Source: an uncultured Gemmatimonadaceae bacterium (GTDB lineage: Bacteria; Gemmatimonadota; Gemmatimonadetes; Gemmatimonadales; Gemmatimonadaceae). From it: a stretch of DNA of 64,000 nt. The notes beneath the pieces were generated by a model. That model saw nothing but the letters and a program-made list of their open reading frames with translations. It did no database searches and had not been told where the DNA came from. Each line of letters opens with the position of its first letter. Within the stretch, counting starts at the first letter, position 1. Of this stretch, positions 46,534-51,174 are shown one piece after another. Where the stretch lies: assembly GCA_963817955.1 (NCBI GenBank), contig CAWFQK010000005.1, positions 128,001 through 192,000 of the forward strand, given 5' to 3'. The position numbers were made by a program, and so were the translations under genes.

Positions 46534-48456
46534 CTACCGCGTTCCAACCCCGGCGAGATGATCCGACGTCTGCGACAATCCCGCGCCCTCGGCGTGTTCA
46601 TCCTCGATCGGGTTGATGATTCCGGTCTCCAGCCAGGCGTGATCGCCCCGCATGACTTGTTGCGCCACGCCGTACATCTGCGCGTCGTAGCTGCCATAGA
46701 AGTCCTCGAATAGCCGCTCCACGCGCACCCGCGCCGCGCGGCAAAAGAGATCGGCCAGCGTCGCGGCCTCTTCGTTCCCCTGCTTGAGCAGCATGCGCGC
46801 GCGCACGCAGGAGGCCGCGATGGCGAACAACTCGGACCCGATGTCCACGGCACGGAACAATACGAGTTGGCGCCGCTCGAGCTTGGGGCCGAGTCGGACC
46901 ATGGCGTGGAAGATTGCGCGGCCCAGCTTGCGCGTGTGTCGCTCGGCAAATCGCATGTGTTTCGCCAATGGGCCGAACTCGCCGAAGGTGCCGGGCAACT
47001 GGCCCTTCCCTACCCAGCGGCTGGGATACCACGCAGGATAGAACTTCAACACGCGGCGGAGTGCTGCCGTCTTCTCGCGCTTGGACGCTTCCTTGTCCAC
47101 CAACGCGAATGCCGTCTTGAAGTGGTAGTCCACTGCTTCGCGGGCAATGAACAGGCGCATGATCTCCGACGAACCCTCGAAGATCAGATTGATGCGCGAA
47201 TCGCGCATGATACGCTCGATCGGGATGGGGCGTTCGCCGCGGGCGCGGAGCGAGTCGGCGGTCTCATAGCCTCGTCCGCCACGGATCTGCAGCGCATCGT
47301 CCACAATGCGCCATCCGTGCTCCGAGTTGTACATCTTGGCAATCGCCGCCTCCAGGCGAATGTCATAGTGTCCTCGCTCGGCGAGTCCAACAGCAAGCCC
47401 GGCGATCGATTCCATGGCATACGTGTTCGCCGCCATCATGGCGACCTTCTGCGCCACTGCTTCGTGCTTGCCGATTGGCGCACCCCACTGCACACGCTCG
47501 CTGGCCCACGTGCGCGACGCTTGGAGCAGCGCCTTGCTGCCCCCCGCGACGCTGGCCGGCAGGGTGAGCCGCCCGGTGTTCAACGTGATGAGCGCGAGCT
47601 TGAGGCCCTTGCCCTCGCCCCACAAGATGTTCTCGCGCGGCACGCGCACGTTCGTGAACCGCAGGACGCCGTTCTCGAGGGCCTTGAGACCCATGAACCG
47701 ACAGCGGTGCACCACCTCGAAGCCGGGCGACGATGCTTCGACGATGAACGCCGTGATCTGCTTGCGCGACTTGCCGTTCACGACCACATCCGGCGTGCGC
47801 GCCATGACCACGAGCAGCTCGGCGCGTGTGCCGTTCGTACACCAGAGTTTCTCGCCGTTCAACGTGAAGTACTTACCGTCGGGGCTTGGCTCGGCGGACG
47901 TATGCATGTTTGCCGGATCGGAGCCCGCGTCGACCTCGGTGAGCGCGAACGCACTGATGGCGCCCTTCGCGAGGCGCGGAAAGAACTTCCGTTTCTGCTC
48001 CGGCGTGCCGAACAATTTCAACGGCTGCGGTAATCCAATGGATTGATGGGCCGAGAGCAGCGCGGTGAGCGAGCCGTCCTTCGAGGTCACCATCGCCATT
48101 GCTTTGACGTAGCTCGCGTACGACAAGCCGAGGCCACCGTACTCCGTGGGAATCTTGATCCCGAACGCGCCCATGTCGCGCAGCTCCTGCACATACGGCT
48201 CGGGAATCTCACCGGTACGATCGATCATGTCCGAATCGACACGCTCCAGGAAGGCGGCGAGCGTGTCCAGGAAGGGCTGCGCGCGCGCTGCGTCGTCGGC
48301 GTCCTCCTCCGGATGCGGATGAATGAGATCGAGCCGGAATCGGCCGAGGAACAGCTCGCGGACGAAACTCGGTCCCGACCATTCGCTCTCGCGGGCGGCT
48401 TCAGCGACGTCGCGGGCTTCCTTCTCGGAAGCGAGGCCAGCCGATTGCTGTGACAT
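46534..48456 (-). CDS. Acyl-CoA dehydrogenase (VLCAD/ACAD9-like)
   Basis: AHQSIG, AFALTE..AGSD, LNGEKLWCTNG, LNTGRL, GGRGY, RINLIFEGSSEI. Confidence 0.95.
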   Translation of the reverse strand: MSQQSAGLASEKEARDVAEAARESEWSGPSFVRELFLGRFRLDLIHPHPEEDADDAARAQPFLDTLAAFLERVDSDMIDRTGEIPEPYVQELRDMGAFGIKIPTEYGGLGLSYASYVKAMAMVTSKDGSLTALLSAHQSIGLPQPLKLFGTPEQKRKFFPRLAKGAISAFALTEVDAGSDPANMHTSAEPSPDGKYFTLNGEKLWCTNGTRAELLVVMARTPDVVVNGKSRKQITAFIVEASSPGFEVVHRCRFMGLKALENGVLRFTNVRVPRENILWGEGKGLKLALITLNTGRLTLPASVAGGSKALLQASRTWASERVQWGAPIGKHEAVAQKVAMMAANTYAMESIAGLAVGLAERGHYDIRLEAAIAKMYNSEHGWRIVDDALQIRGGRGYETADSLRARGERPIPIERIMRDSRINLIFEGSSEIMRLFIAREAVDYHFKTAFALVDKEASKREKTAALRRVLKFYPAWYPSRWVGKGQLPGTFGEFGPLAKHMRFAERHTRKLGRAIFHAMVRLGPKLERRQLVLFRAVDIGSELFAIAASCVRARMLLKQGNEEAATLADLFCRAARVRVERLFEDFYGSYDAQMYGVAQQVMRGDHAWLETGIINPIEDEHAEGAGLSQTSDHLAGVGTR

Positions 48457-48710
48457 GGGACACTCACTGAAAGGCGTACCGATGCACACACTGTAGGGTC
48501 GGCGATGTCGCTGCCGTGACCCTACTTCGACCGGGCAGGAACGATGCATCCTCCGCGCCGCTCTAACCTCAACGAGGTCCGTTTACTCGCCGATGGGCTG
48601 GCTGACTGGCTTATGGCCCGCTGTCCTTTCACGTCGTTGACTGCGTTGATCCTGGTGGTGACCGCACCACTGGCTGTGCCGCGGCCGGCCATGGTCCTGA
48701 TTCCAGCGGT

Positions 48711-49130
48711 AGTCGCCGATTTGGCAGTAGTAGTGGTGCGGCGACGCCGGTGGGGGCGCCAATCACGCCCGTGGACTCGTCAATCACACCCGGAGGGGAT
48801 GTGAACGCGCCCGTAACTCGACCAATCGGGCCTGCTATGTCGCCGAACGTTGCTGTAACTCGCCCGGTCGGCAAAAGAGCCGGGCGAATCGGGCCCGTAG
48901 CCCGGCTGATCGGGCCCGTAGACCTCCCGTAGCGCATCGTAACGGCGCCGATCGACGCCGTAGGTGCTCCGAACGACTCCGGTATCCGCCGAATCGGCAG
49001 AGGAGGGCGACCAAACGAGGTGTTAGAGCAACCCAGCGAGGCGATAGAGCAACCCAGCGGGGGGGTAGAGCAACCCAACGCACCCGTAGACCGGGTGAAC
49101 GCACCGGTAGACCACCTGAGACGACTGATA
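48711..49130. repeat. Degenerate 21-bp tandem array (18 clear units at 48753-49130 plus about 2 decayed units)
   Basis: Units stay in register without indels, e.g. GCCCGGCTGATCGGGCCCGTA, GAGCAACCCAACGCACCCGTA, GACCGGGTGAACGCACCGGTA. Confidence 0.85.
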
Positions 49131-49134
49131 TTGA

Positions 49135-49162
49135 AACGGGCCTGCCGGATGGCAGGCCCGTT
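49135..49162 (-). terminator. Perfect 12-bp hairpin between the hypothetical gene and the array
   Basis: AACGGGCCTGCC-ggat-GGCAGGCCCGTT; weak U-tract. Confidence 0.7.
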
Positions 49163-49185
49163 CCAGTTGTTACACCAACTGTTCG

Positions 49186-49932
49186 TTACGCGGCGGCAGC
49201 CAGGGGCGGTGCCGTGCCGGCCTGAGAACCAACCGCGGTGGTGTTCGCGGTTGTATTGGCGGCAGCGACATCGACGAGCGATGTCGTATCCGGACGAACG
49301 CCCTTCTTGACGACGTGCATCGCGTTCTTCCACGATGCGAGCTTCGCTGGATCGTCGCGCAAGACGCGGCAGAACGCCACGTCCAGCGCCTGGATCGCCT
49401 TCCTGGCTTTCGCCAGTACGGCCGGAATGTCATTCGTTGCCTCGACCGAATCGGCGCGCGACTGATCGCGGATTTCGATCGCCTGCTTCAGTAGCGCCGC
49501 CTGCTGGCGGAGGCCTGCCACGAAGTCCAACGACACGCCGTACTGCACCAGCATCGGCTGATTCTGCTCGCCGATGTTGGCCATTGCTTCCGCCGAACGC
49601 ATCAACTTCTCATTCGATGACGCTCGGTCCGGCACGCGCAACGACGCGCGCAATTCAGGCGTGCGCGTCAGCACAGACCGCGCAACCTTCGCCAAGGGCG
49701 ACAGGTGATGCACCCGCAACTCCTGCCGGAGATCCTTGACGTTGGCATGCGCACCGGCGATGACGCGTTGCGCCTGCGCCTGCCGCACCCCCAACGCGAC
49801 CATCGACGCCGCGGCGTCGTGTACGGCTTGTACCTGCGGCTGCACTTCGGACGGCACGAGTGTCGCATTCGCGACGACCCACGCGCCGACCCGCTGCGTT
49901 GCCTCGAACACTCTTTCCTCTGTTTTCTGCAT
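49186..49932 (-). CDS. Hypothetical predicted all-alpha protein (248 aa)
   Basis: Amphipathic helical pattern, no signal peptide or TM segment; HHLSPLAKVAR and DDPAKLASWKNA segments; Ala/Thr-rich tail. Confidence 0.8.
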   Translation of the reverse strand: MQKTEERVFEATQRVGAWVVANATLVPSEVQPQVQAVHDAAASMVALGVRQAQAQRVIAGAHANVKDLRQELRVHHLSPLAKVARSVLTRTPELRASLRVPDRASSNEKLMRSAEAMANIGEQNQPMLVQYGVSLDFVAGLRQQAALLKQAIEIRDQSRADSVEATNDIPAVLAKARKAIQALDVAFCRVLRDDPAKLASWKNAMHVVKKGVRPDTTSLVDVAAANTTANTTAVGSQAGTAPPLAAAA

Positions 49933-50709
49933 GACAGTTCCATGGTTAAGAGACACTAGGACCAACGGTGAACACATCGTCGTAATTGGAATCCATTCCG
50001 GGATTCACGAGCGGTGTGTGGGTGTCTCCGGGACTGCGCGGCAGCGAGCGCGAAAAGGTCGCCCCTCGAGTGGCGACATTCCTGCGGTCAGATGCCACGG
50101 TGGGACGTGTGCGGGTCCCTCCGTGTGTCGGCTTAGGCCGCGGGGGTGCACTCGTGGTCGTGGATCCGGCGGCCCCGTGTCGCGAAGCGACAGCGTGCCG
50201 CCTTGCTGCGTGTGCTGCAGTCCTGCTAGTGCAACCGAATTACCGGTCCTGCAACTAGTGCTGCCGAGACATCACACAGCAGGGTCGAAAGCCTCTTCGT
50301 CCGTGGCCATCGGAAACGCTCGTTTTGGATTAGAGCGTTGCTCGACCCAATGCTTGGGGTGGCGAGCCCCGAGGGGTACCAATTAAAAGGGGTACCCCAC
50401 GAATGCGCAAGGGGGCGGGGGGGGGGGGGGTAGCAAGAATCGGTATTGGGTCAGTCTGATTGCAACAGAGATATTCAGGGCTCATCTTCTCACGGCGGGG
50501 GCGCTTGACGACCGAACTACCGGGCGAGTTCGTCGACAAACTTCTCGCGCTCACTCCAGGGGATCGGAATGATCTTGTACTCCAGAAGGGCACTTGTAAC
50601 GGATGCCAGGGTCGGATGCTCCTGATCATTCAGGATCGCGAAGAAGCGTGACTCCTCGCTGCGTGCACCCTTCGTCTCGATCCAACGACAGGCGAGCAGC
50701 GGTGATGAC

Positions 50710-51174
50710 GTGGATGACTCCCGCCGTATTCCACGTCGGCGACCAATCAATGCGATGGCCGGTCACGCTGATCGCGCGCGAAGTGTGTCGCCCCTGATGC
50801 TCGCCTCGCGCTCCGATCGCCTCTTTGGCCAGTTGATCGACGGACTGGTGGGCGCCGCACCCATGCTTGTCACCGTCGGCCTGTCGTGGCTCATCGGCGG
50901 GTTGGCTATCCCGTTTCTGCTCGGCGCTGTCGCCTGGTCGGCCTTCTATTACCTGTTCGCCGATGGGTTCTCGGAAGGTCAAAGCATCGGCAAGCGATGG
51001 CTCGGTTCGCACGTCGTCAGCGTCGAGACGGGTGCGCCGTGCACCTTCGGCCAGTCATTCGTTCGCAATTCCCTGCTGGCGATCCTCGGACCGATCGACT
51101 GGGTCTTCATCTTCGGCGAGCGCCGCCAACGCCTGGGCGACAAAGCTGCGGGGACAATCGTCGTCGAGGATTAG
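50710..51174 (+). CDS. RDD-family membrane protein (start may be 50797)
   Basis: R...LID, GQSIGKR, SFVRN, RQRLGDKAAGTIVV. Confidence 0.88.
   Translation: MDDSRRIPRRRPINAMAGHADRARSVSPLMLASRSDRLFGQLIDGLVGAAPMLVTVGLSWLIGGLAIPFLLGAVAWSAFYYLFADGFSEGQSIGKRWLGSHVVSVETGAPCTFGQSFVRNSLLAILGPIDWVFIFGERRQRLGDKAAGTIVVED

Follow-up and report, generated by a model that had tools for sequence, protein, structure and literature searches.

This locus raises the question of whether the gene for a nameless helical protein and the array of 21-bp units beside it belong together, and of what such a pairing might be. The window, a stretch of 64,000 nucleotides from an uncultured Gemmatimonadaceae bacterium, carries one such pair, and in this work we describe the locus as one copy of a widespread and undescribed gene-plus-repeat cassette of soil Gemmatimonadota. 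From sequence comparison, the window copy belongs to a divergent, species-specific lineage in which the array lies after the gene's terminator hairpin. Gemmatimonadota are among the most abundant soil bacteria, and to our knowledge almost nothing is known of their genome organisation; the arrays examined here are tied to a nameless protein family with thousands of variants, and no description of such 21-bp arrays was found in the literature, as far as titles and the openings of abstracts convey.

All of the features given in the preliminary description (array, gene, hairpin, G run, inverted repeat and structured upstream region) are present in the window. The gene for the 248-aa protein (49186..49932, minus strand) has the GC pattern of real genes in this genome, with 0.74-0.86 at third and 0.38-0.50 at second codon positions, and its start is backed by alignment with relatives. 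A GC-rich hairpin (49132..49165, minus strand; inverted repeat I1) separates its stop codon from the array; the arms, 49132-49146 and 49151-49165, lie 4 nt apart and are 93% complementary over 15 nt, and the perfect 12-bp stem reported earlier falls inside them, with the array beginning a few bases beyond. This hairpin probably serves the gene as its terminator and could work in either direction; a simple terminator scan did not flag it because its T run is short, and the single Rfam 15 match within 48000-51000 lies at this hairpin and scores 24.3 bits against a gathering score of 137. On the other side of the gene lies a single-copy region with several hairpins (49933..50410, minus strand), which is presumed to be its promoter and 5' leader. 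The stretch 49933-50440 (508 nt) folds more stably than shuffled sequence (z = -3.0) and has no Rfam match, and a second copy of the upstream region is absent both from the genome and from 30 genomes of the genus. The region (49933..50410) shows no lag-21 signal and is unlike the conserved 5' flank of canonical cassettes, and neither the window region nor cassette L008 yielded a sigma-70-like promoter. Within it, an 11-nt inverted repeat, CGAGGGGTACC / GGTACCCCACG, with a 10-nt spacer (pair I7), occupies 50370-50380 / 50391-50401, and the outer limit of the single-copy region is marked by a G run of 20 bases (50411..50430, plus strand, 89% G) that appears on the strand of the gene as a run of C. 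At the window locus, CGTGAGGACGCGCA, a hairpin motif from the leaders of some subfamilies, occurs no more than expected by chance. The neighbours are an acyl-CoA dehydrogenase, a DUF1829 fragment and an RDD protein; that the module is foreign to them is supported, in that array and gene are both missing upstream of the orthologous acyl-CoA dehydrogenase in 12 relatives. In tblastx comparisons, similarity to the relatives' dehydrogenase loci stops within ~48540-48660, around the spacer (48550..48739) that leads from the array to the start region of the dehydrogenase.

The array itself (48740..49129, minus strand) comprises about 19 degenerate units with a minus-strand consensus of approximately GCTCTACGGGCCCGATCGGCC. 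Lag identity across 48710-49130 is 0.52 at 21, 0.46 at 42 and 0.45 at 63, and at most 0.34 at all remaining lags from 1 to 70. The units run in register from 49129 down to ~48740 without a shift of phase, and although neighbouring units are ~48% divergent, there are no small indels in 390 bp. Because the units are so degenerate, Tandem Repeats Finder returned just three short period-21 pieces (48744-48792, 48878-48921 and 49016-49077). The array has no 7-bp periodicity (0.20 at both lag 7 and lag 14, against a background of ~0.26), and units of its family, type B, carry AT-rich patches every ~10.5 bp (second harmonic share 0.34). Type B numbers 4-5 copies in the genome; genome comparison places others at C1:191699-192281, C2:413020-413514 and C4:1152437-1152768. 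Hairpin and array are conserved together in the C1 and C2 copies, and in three of the four other copies both are kept while the gene is reduced to its last ~45 codons or less, leaving the window with the single intact gene of this lineage and no donor copies. The array gaps between the C5 and C1 copies are two, both internal and both of whole 21-bp units, and the similarity of the window to other type-B copies stops at ~48714-48775. Array RNA folds with z of about -3 on either strand, so that folding does not tell the strands apart; position-weight-matrix comparison of the window array with upstream arrays gives 0.11-0.39 in either orientation, and AT skew hints that its plus strand corresponds to the type-A sense strand. 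The window array is non-coding: its GC content by codon phase is unlike that of genes, unit conservation is flat over the three phases, mismatches between copies are spread 21/29/24 by phase (p = 0.52), and sister arrays contain stops within sense frames.

The 248-aa protein, as modelled by AlphaFold2 (mean pLDDT 83.1, dropping under 50 in the tail 211-248), is predicted to consist of a basic three-helix-bundle core (1-210) and a disordered Ala/Pro/Thr-rich tail. Profile searching recovered 4,407 cluster representatives at E<=0.001, and alignment places the window protein as a divergent member of this large uncharacterised Gemmatimonadota family, its two closest relatives being 45% and 43% identical. 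The pI of its core is 9.8, and among 136 members the helical core has a median pI of 10.1 and a net charge of +7. About 20 family copies occur in the genome, most of them broken, and a search of a wider collection of genome contigs with the window protein as single query returned no relative. The earlier judgement that the protein is an orphan was borne out, in that it falls into no known family. Pfam, PHROGs and PADLOC gave no match for it, nor did Pfam or PADLOC for 9 of its relatives, and NCBIfam gave one sub-threshold hit, to the PQLLE family (16.8 bits; cut-off 80). Fold searches of the PDB by Foldseek and by VIA-align and of BFVD gave no match at E<=0.001, and the best Z of 10.7 lies in the generic helical-bundle range, the search tool advising a level of about 13 for helical proteins. 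The PDB sequence profile search gave a chance match (E 0.92), and ESM Atlas returned unnamed Gemmatimonadota clusters. No ribbon-helix-helix or helix-turn-helix domain was found by Pfam or among the top fold-search rows, the latter result not excluding one. A homodimer prediction for residues 1-210 gave no verdict either way (score 0.00).

Comparison of the family's loci defines a canonical cassette of ~2.1 kb with a single gene. In the direction of the gene it consists of a short heptamer run, an AT-rich conserved flank, the 21-bp array (0.3-1.5 kb), a GC hairpin, a ribosome-binding site and start codon, the gene, and a 34-nt palindromic hairpin. The heptamer run, (GGGACAC)n, abuts the 5' edge, and the GC hairpin before the gene is a textbook terminator in some copies. 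Approximately 23 type-A cassettes share the 5' flank (78-96% identical), the array family and the 3' palindrome, with intact genes in only 4. In 8 of 30 leaders a strong hairpin in sense orientation, with a T run after it, precedes the start codon by 23-82 nt, and weak terminator-like sites occur antisense in 7 of the 30.

The coupling of gene and array is real and old. Seventeen lag-21 regions touch a family member in the genome, 16 on its 5' side and the window's on its 3' side. Across ten related genomes of the genus, which are not independent samples, an array lies upstream at 21 of 39 homologous loci and downstream at 1, and 18 of the 39 have none by our threshold; among controls, none of 78 distal flanks passed the threshold and, of 3,000 random 870-nt genome stretches, 64 did. 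The preliminary description had pointed to helical genes followed by 21-bp arrays in other bacteria, and had staked the unity of gene and array on periodicity downstream of homologues; with such periodicity at a single locus, the proposed order does not hold and, taken to the letter, the check goes against it. What stands of the claim is that the two travel together at the level of the family, the array usually upstream. Another family of the same order has an upstream array at 2 of 5 evaluable loci. Inspection downstream of seven type-A arrays revealed decayed genes at five and a leader alone at two, the decayed genes including those at 477907, 659038 and 1204303, which genome-wide family matching had missed. 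At the same place, paralogues sharing only 26-31% identity have arrays whose units fall into six unrelated families, and upstream arrays occur in nearly all clades of the protein tree. Of the relatives' upstream arrays, 19 of 21 are rich in C and poor in G on the gene strand, which suggests that the relevant property belongs to one strand, perhaps at the level of RNA, and is not purely one of the duplex. Four short metagenome contigs encode relatives 27-30% identical, with no array in the 330-610 nt available upstream; short-read contigs may end at arrays and so show none. The 21-bp arrays probably break short-read assemblies, which may be why the family is found mainly in better-assembled genomes.

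The period extends well beyond these loci. The 4.5-Mb genome contains 73 regions of period 21 (28.7 kb), compared with 5 for period 20 and 0 for period 22, so that about 0.6% of it consists of repeats of exactly 21 bp. The arrays number 10-70 units, and in the harmonic analysis those other than the window's had 14-73. The period is conserved and the unit sequence is not. Some array families have a 7-bp sub-period (harmonic share up to 0.61), and a motif common to all families was considered and dropped: among the 32 arrays examined, any one 5-mer is frequent in at most 5, and GANTC is sparse, at 0.17 per unit against a background of 0.08. Many arrays are orphans without a gene, such as that between convergent genes at C5:41655-42218. 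Gaps between pairs of cassettes are exact multiples of 21 in 18 of 55 cases and single bases in 21 of 55, array and flank being pooled; the tally is no more than suggestive of unit gain and loss.

The reading that we favour, tentatively and at somewhat less than even chances, takes the arrays to be binding lattices with a step of two helical turns, which the adjacent basic protein reads. Each 21-bp unit would correspond to two turns of B-DNA and to one binding register; the protein would coat its own array, as DNA or possibly as transcribed leader RNA, with all copies on one helix face so that binding could be cooperative. The cassette, multiplying and decaying in the manner of a selfish element, might thereby regulate itself or be silenced. 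Such a role is consistent with the position of the array beside family members, on the 5' side almost throughout, with an old linkage in which unit families turn over at a fixed place, with the retention of period over sequence, and with a non-coding array in a cassette whose sole gene encodes a basic helical core. Against it, the predicted fold has no recognised DNA- or RNA-binding motif and matches generic bundles, many arrays persist without a gene, three of four other type-B copies pair an array with a gene remnant, nearly half of the homologous loci have no array by our threshold, and the C-rich gene strand suggests that the relevant property is strand-specific, perhaps at the RNA level. 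If the protein does read the lattice, the cassette would represent a new DNA- or RNA-binding fold together with a new self-contained regulatory or selfish module. A more far-reaching and rather doubtful version is that these are an unrecognised class of Gemmatimonadota chromosomal cassettes, each pairing a small basic three-helix-bundle protein with its own 21-bp lattice, on which it polymerises into a chromatin-like or RNP filament that silences, insulates or propagates the cassette, with protein and unit sequence co-diversifying into mutually exclusive specificities. Were such co-diversifying recognition true, it would amount to a new nucleic-acid-binding fold that recognises a repeat register, in thousands of variants.

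If, on the other hand, the protein does not read the lattice, some host factor must enforce the two-helical-turn period. An unlikely alternative along these lines would have a host factor, and not the adjacent protein, read the arrays as cis-regulatory leaders or upstream lattices, with the helical gene as just the regulated cargo; candidates would be Rho, loaded onto a long C-rich transcript, or a protein of the response-regulator type that binds once per two helical turns. The C-rich, G-poor gene strand of the relatives' upstream arrays fits this proposal, as do the sense hairpins with T runs in 8 of 30 leaders, the existence of orphan arrays, and the two-turn spacing of weak activator sites, which is reportedly known in bacteria (PMC7250471). 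However, no motif is common to the array families and a single host factor would need to recognise unrelated units, just the helical gene is carried along when the cassette copies itself, weak terminator-like sites are about as common antisense, and the window array comes after its gene.

We also consider it improbable that the arrays are functionless, self-renewing minisatellites of a lineage prone to tandem-repeat growth at hairpin-rich gene ends, in which copying of units passes on the 21-bp period and whole-cassette duplication alone accounts for the link to the gene family. Neutral drift should generate periods of 20 and 22, which are rare or missing beside the 73 regions of period 21. 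The place beside the start codon is kept among paralogues 26-31% identical and in two families of the order even as the unit sequence is fully replaced, and the window units have diverged by about half without one small indel. What speaks for a minisatellite origin are the gaps between copies that are exact multiples of 21, the broken state of most cassette genes, the persistence of orphan arrays, and the 7-bp sub-period of some families, as if they were built from heptamers.

Lower still in probability is the possibility that arrays and conserved flanks serve as recombination handles for exchange between intact and silent gene copies, giving cassette-based variation. Trypanosome VSG genes, which have 70-bp repeats upstream, provide the comparison, and the weak top fold matches of the window protein are trypanosome three-helix-bundle surface receptors (4e40, Z 9.5; 5vtl, TM 0.43-0.50); the ~23 type-A cassettes with shared flank, array family and palindrome but four intact genes would suit such a store of variants. 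These fold matches fall within the generic helical-bundle range, however, and a surface role is unsupported because inspection by eye of the aligned N-termini revealed no signal peptide or anchor. Neither an expression site nor a recombinase was identified, and the type-B lineage has one intact gene and no donor copies.

That the cassette is a type III toxin-antitoxin-like pair, in which a repeat RNA neutralises a protein encoded after a terminator, is very improbable, even though the canonical order of flank, repeats, hairpin or terminator and gene on one strand recalls it. The likeness drawn in the preliminary description breaks down over unit length, unit number and toxin family: the units are 21 nt, degenerate and present in tens per array, and the protein, a predicted all-helical bundle, matches neither ToxN/AbiQ-type nor other defence families. 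Moreover, the order is reversed in the window, and in most copies the array persists beside a pseudogene. Finally, it is scarcely credible that the array descends by decay from an ordinary gene for a heptad-repeat protein, an alternative raised earlier to which a period divisible by three, a minus-strand frame (48629-49333) open across the entire array and a mildly high-low-high GC over codon positions 1-3 of plus-strand frame 0 lend some colour: a fitting start or ribosome-binding site and a Pfam match are absent, neither unit conservation nor inter-copy substitutions show codon-position bias, the plus frame has a stop within the array as sister arrays do in their sense frames, periods 18 and 24 are rare genome-wide (4 and 2 regions), and indels are whole 21-bp units rather than multiples of 3 bp.

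Set beside known systems, the cassette shares single features with several. Type III toxin-antitoxin loci (ToxIN, CptIN, TenpIN) consist of a few near-identical repeats of ~35-45 nt, a terminator and then the toxin gene, and canonical cassettes have the same succession on one strand; they differ in having tens of degenerate units (~19 in the window), in a protein without a ToxN/AbiQ, CptN or TenpN match and with a predicted all-helical fold, and, in the window, in an array downstream of the gene, upstream placement being confined to other family members. Iterons, the 17-22-bp direct repeats that accompany Rep initiators, have a similar unit length and likewise form direct repeats whose specificity would co-vary with an adjacent gene. 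The protein and its neighbours lack a Rep, helicase or primase domain, in contrast to iteron systems, and the arrays, which are far longer, lie scattered along the chromosome, with no replicon or island context seen. A further likeness is to the partition centromeres of parC/ParR systems, with units of 11 bp in R1 and 20 bp in pSK41, where helically phased tandem direct repeats adjoin the gene for a small protein and the repeat sequence differs between related systems. At our locus, too, phased repeats of period 21 abut the gene for a candidate binding protein. Unlike parC/ParR, no gene for a ParM/ParA/TubZ-type NTPase adjoins, the cassette holding one gene; 20-70 chromosomal copies per genome replace one per replicon; and the arrays reach 70 units, with most genes decayed. 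The helical protein, a long three-helix bundle in the model, has no ribbon-helix-helix or helix-turn-helix domain by Pfam, and such a domain may yet have escaped the top rows of the fold searches. Short intergenic tandem repeats, including heptamers, have reportedly been described in Xanthomonas, Nostoc and Gemmatimonadota, and these resemble the present arrays as fast-evolving tandem repeats at gene ends, in the (GGGACAC)n run at the cassette edge, and in the 7-bp sub-period of some array families. Their units measure 5-11 nt, whereas the window array has a lag-7 identity of 0.20, and the arrays described here are tied to one gene family with a period fixed at 21.

All elements described in the preliminary description of the window locus (gene, hairpin, phased 21-bp array, G run, palindrome and structured upstream region) are present. 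The gene for the 248-aa helical protein runs on the minus strand from 49932 down to 49186, and a GC hairpin (minus strand; arms 49132-49146 and 49151-49165) stands directly 3' of it; a few bases past the hairpin begins an array of ~19 units of 21 bp, in a single register throughout, that extends to ~48740. Across 48710-49130 the share of matching bases 21 apart (lag-21 identity) is 0.52, with 0.46 at lag 42, 0.45 at lag 63 and no more than 0.34 at all other lags up to 70; because the units are degenerate, Tandem Repeats Finder picks up only three short pieces of the array. A G run (50411-50430) and an inverted repeat (50370-50401) were also located, and the 508-nt region 5' of the gene has a better fold than shuffled sequences do (z = -3.0) and no Rfam match. 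The sole terminator-like site from a consensus scan of the region lies inside the array (48881-48897, minus strand), where a single unit has drifted to a hairpin and T run, with a 5-bp stem then CTCTTTTGC. The 77-aa reading frame at 50517-50750 (minus strand) resembles the C-terminal portion of DUF1829 alone (E 2.5e-10, covering positions 38-87 of the 87 in the profile); it is probably a fragmentary gene on the margin of the accessory patch.

Across the source genome (G000; contigs denoted C), the conserved feature of such arrays is their period, not their sequence. A lag-21 scan returned 55 regions (34.5 kb), a few of them plain trinucleotide runs, and a genome-wide scan over every period between 8 and 45 assigned 73 regions (28.7 kb) to period 21, five to period 20 and none to period 22. 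Period 17, the second commonest (15 regions, 4.0 kb), represents a second, smaller class of tandem array, and 14 regions are periodic at 42 bp only, as two-unit higher-order repeats. In all-against-all BLAST the arrays form six families by sequence, with 23, 5, 4, 4, 2 and 2 members, plus three singletons, and unit profiles correlate only weakly between families.

The commonest kind, type A (23 arrays), takes the form of a repeated unit of ~2.1 kb, which in gene direction comprises a (GGGACAC)n run, an AT-rich flank (78-96% identity among copies), a 21-bp array of 0.3-1.5 kb, a hairpin, a ribosome-binding site with ATG, the helical family gene and a perfect 34-nt palindrome. In the type-A cassette L008 (C4:1539518-1543228), where the heptamer run adjoins the 5' edge as in other type-A cassettes, the hairpin is a 9-bp stem then a T run. 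A GGGACAC run also lies at the 5' edge of an orphan array, immediately past a stop codon (C5:41642-41683); the orphan array at C5:41655-42218 occupies the entire gap between two convergent genes and changes abruptly between two 21-bp unit types, the second with seven identical copies. The longest arrays, of 72-73 units, belong to type-A cassettes at C4:765585-767263 and C4:1120339-1121968; the same non-cassette sequence stands immediately past the leader (the stretch between array and start codon) in both, and a larger segment with a gene-less cassette has apparently been duplicated.

Family loci number ~20 in this genome, many truncated or frameshifted, and only four type-A genes are intact. 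Downstream of seven type-A arrays inspected, a decayed gene was found in five and only a leader in two; three of the five decayed genes lie in regions without a gene match in the lag-21 scan. Of the lag-21 regions, 17 adjoin a gene of the family; in 16 of these the array is 5' of the gene, and in the window alone it is 3'. Paralogues 26-31% identical to the window protein each carry a different array family in the same 5' position. In paralogues ~27-30% identical, the leader hairpin retains CGTGAGGACGCGCA, which covers the loop and some of the stem, and this sequence persists at the end of an orphan array (sites at C1:442524-442537, C4:1266087-1266100 and C6:89344-89357, and also locus L081). 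With one mismatch allowed, the pattern occurs 45 times in the genome versus 14 for a reversed control; possibly it is an RNA motif related to a protein or to the ribosome.

Of 24 other genomes of the genus, 13 have the family; in two other families of the order, 4/8 and 0/8 genomes do. It is mostly missing from fragmented assemblies, and disruption of assembly by arrays may be the reason; array counts from short-read assemblies are probably under-reported. Calling an array where lag-21 identity over 126 nt reached 0.5 or more within 900 nt (cut-offs of our own setting), we sampled 40 loci from ten genomes, 39 with a scorable gene; 21 have an upstream array and one a downstream array, counts that are non-independent trials since the sampled genomes are kin. 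By the same criterion, none of 78 distal flanks of these loci scored, and 64 of 3,000 segments drawn at random from this genome did. Nearly every clade of a maximum-likelihood tree has upstream arrays, which also occur at two of five evaluable loci in a more distant family of the order. The pairing of gene and array that had been proposed from the window therefore recurs both here and among relatives, whereas the suggested rule that the array follows the gene is reversed, downstream periodicity being the exception in both samples.

The copy in the window forms a lineage of its own, type B. C1:191699-192281 repeats its array, hairpin and last ~100 nt of gene at 78% identity, C2:413020-413514 holds a further occurrence of hairpin and array, and C4:1152437-1152768 holds pieces of the module; the window gene body and its upstream region are single copy in the genome. 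In C1 the copy starts where a co-oriented zinc-peptidase-like gene (motif judged by eye) has its stop codon; in C2 it is flanked by a short co-oriented reading frame on the upstream side and, downstream, by the end of a gene on the opposite strand. Downstream genes differ among the copies, which rules out that the type-B array is a 5' element belonging to one downstream gene common to them all. No DNA match was found in 30 other genomes of the genus, and in twelve relatives the array and the helical gene are each missing 5' of the acyl-CoA dehydrogenase orthologue, in keeping with the earlier view that the module is not linked to that gene. Type-B units carry two AT-rich patches ~10.5 bp apart, a spacing that agrees with expectation for sites on one helix face.

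Pfam, PHROGs and PADLOC give no match for the helical protein, NCBIfam gives only one below threshold, and none of 28 further relatives exceeds the Pfam cut-off. AlphaFold2, from an alignment of ten sequences, predicts a confident long helical bundle (mean pLDDT 83.1), with residues 211-248 disordered and Ala/Pro/Thr-rich; fold searches returned generic helical bundles only (best Foldseek E 0.09, best VIA Z 10.7). A profile search of 1.84 billion representatives retrieved 4,407 proteins at E<=0.001 and 739 at E<=1e-30; among the 150 matches listed, nearly all are ~230-260 aa with a common starting methionine. In the ESM Atlas the protein falls among unnamed Gemmatimonadota clusters, and in the maximum-likelihood tree it and two metagenome proteins sit on a long branch. 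Strong basicity marks the helical core, whose median pI is 10.1 and median net charge +7 over 136 members.

Four features are hard to explain by drift: a period of exactly 21, with 20 and 22 near absent; free replacement of the unit sequence; an array kept beside one family since before its divergence to ~27% identity; and a cassette without other content. These fit a lattice of binding registers, and we tentatively favor, at somewhat less than even confidence, a reading in which each two-turn 21-bp unit would act as one register and the adjacent basic protein would be the candidate reader, although orphan arrays and a fold without a known nucleic-acid-binding motif count against this protein as reader. 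In 19 of 21 upstream arrays C outweighs G on the gene strand, and in 8 of 30 leaders a good terminator stands immediately 5' of the start codon; both are consistent with reading at the RNA level or by a host factor, which we consider unlikely, and to the same degree we doubt that the arrays are a functionless, self-renewing minisatellite. It is quite improbable that they serve cassette recombination, and more so that the cassette is a type III toxin-antitoxin-like pair; the loose likeness drawn earlier fails on the length and number of units, on the protein family, and on the order, which is reversed in the window copy. The window array is non-coding, as had been supposed: the codon-position GC of real genes in this genome, shared by the helical gene (third position 0.74-0.86, second 0.38-0.50), is absent from it, no three-base rhythm was found in conservation over the 21 unit positions, and against the closest genomic copy mismatches are even across phases (21/29/24, p = 0.52) and the two gaps inside the array are each exactly 21 bp. 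A single minus-strand frame is open through the array, as a decayed heptad gene might leave, but it has no Pfam match and neither conservation nor mismatches carry a codon-phase signal, so that such an origin is almost certainly wrong.

Like the lattice cassette proposed here, partition centromeres with their binding proteins and iterons with Rep place phased repeats beside the gene of their reader; the cassette differs from both in having no NTPase, Rep or replicon context. ToxIN-type systems have repeats, terminator and gene order in common with canonical cassettes, and part from them in the respects already named. The heptamer repeats of the phylum share the intergenic habitat of the 21-bp arrays but have a different period, and a literature search at the level of titles and abstract listings returned no description of such arrays. 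On these comparisons we rate the gene-plus-lattice cassette, with the function that we infer for it, as falling outside the described kinds.
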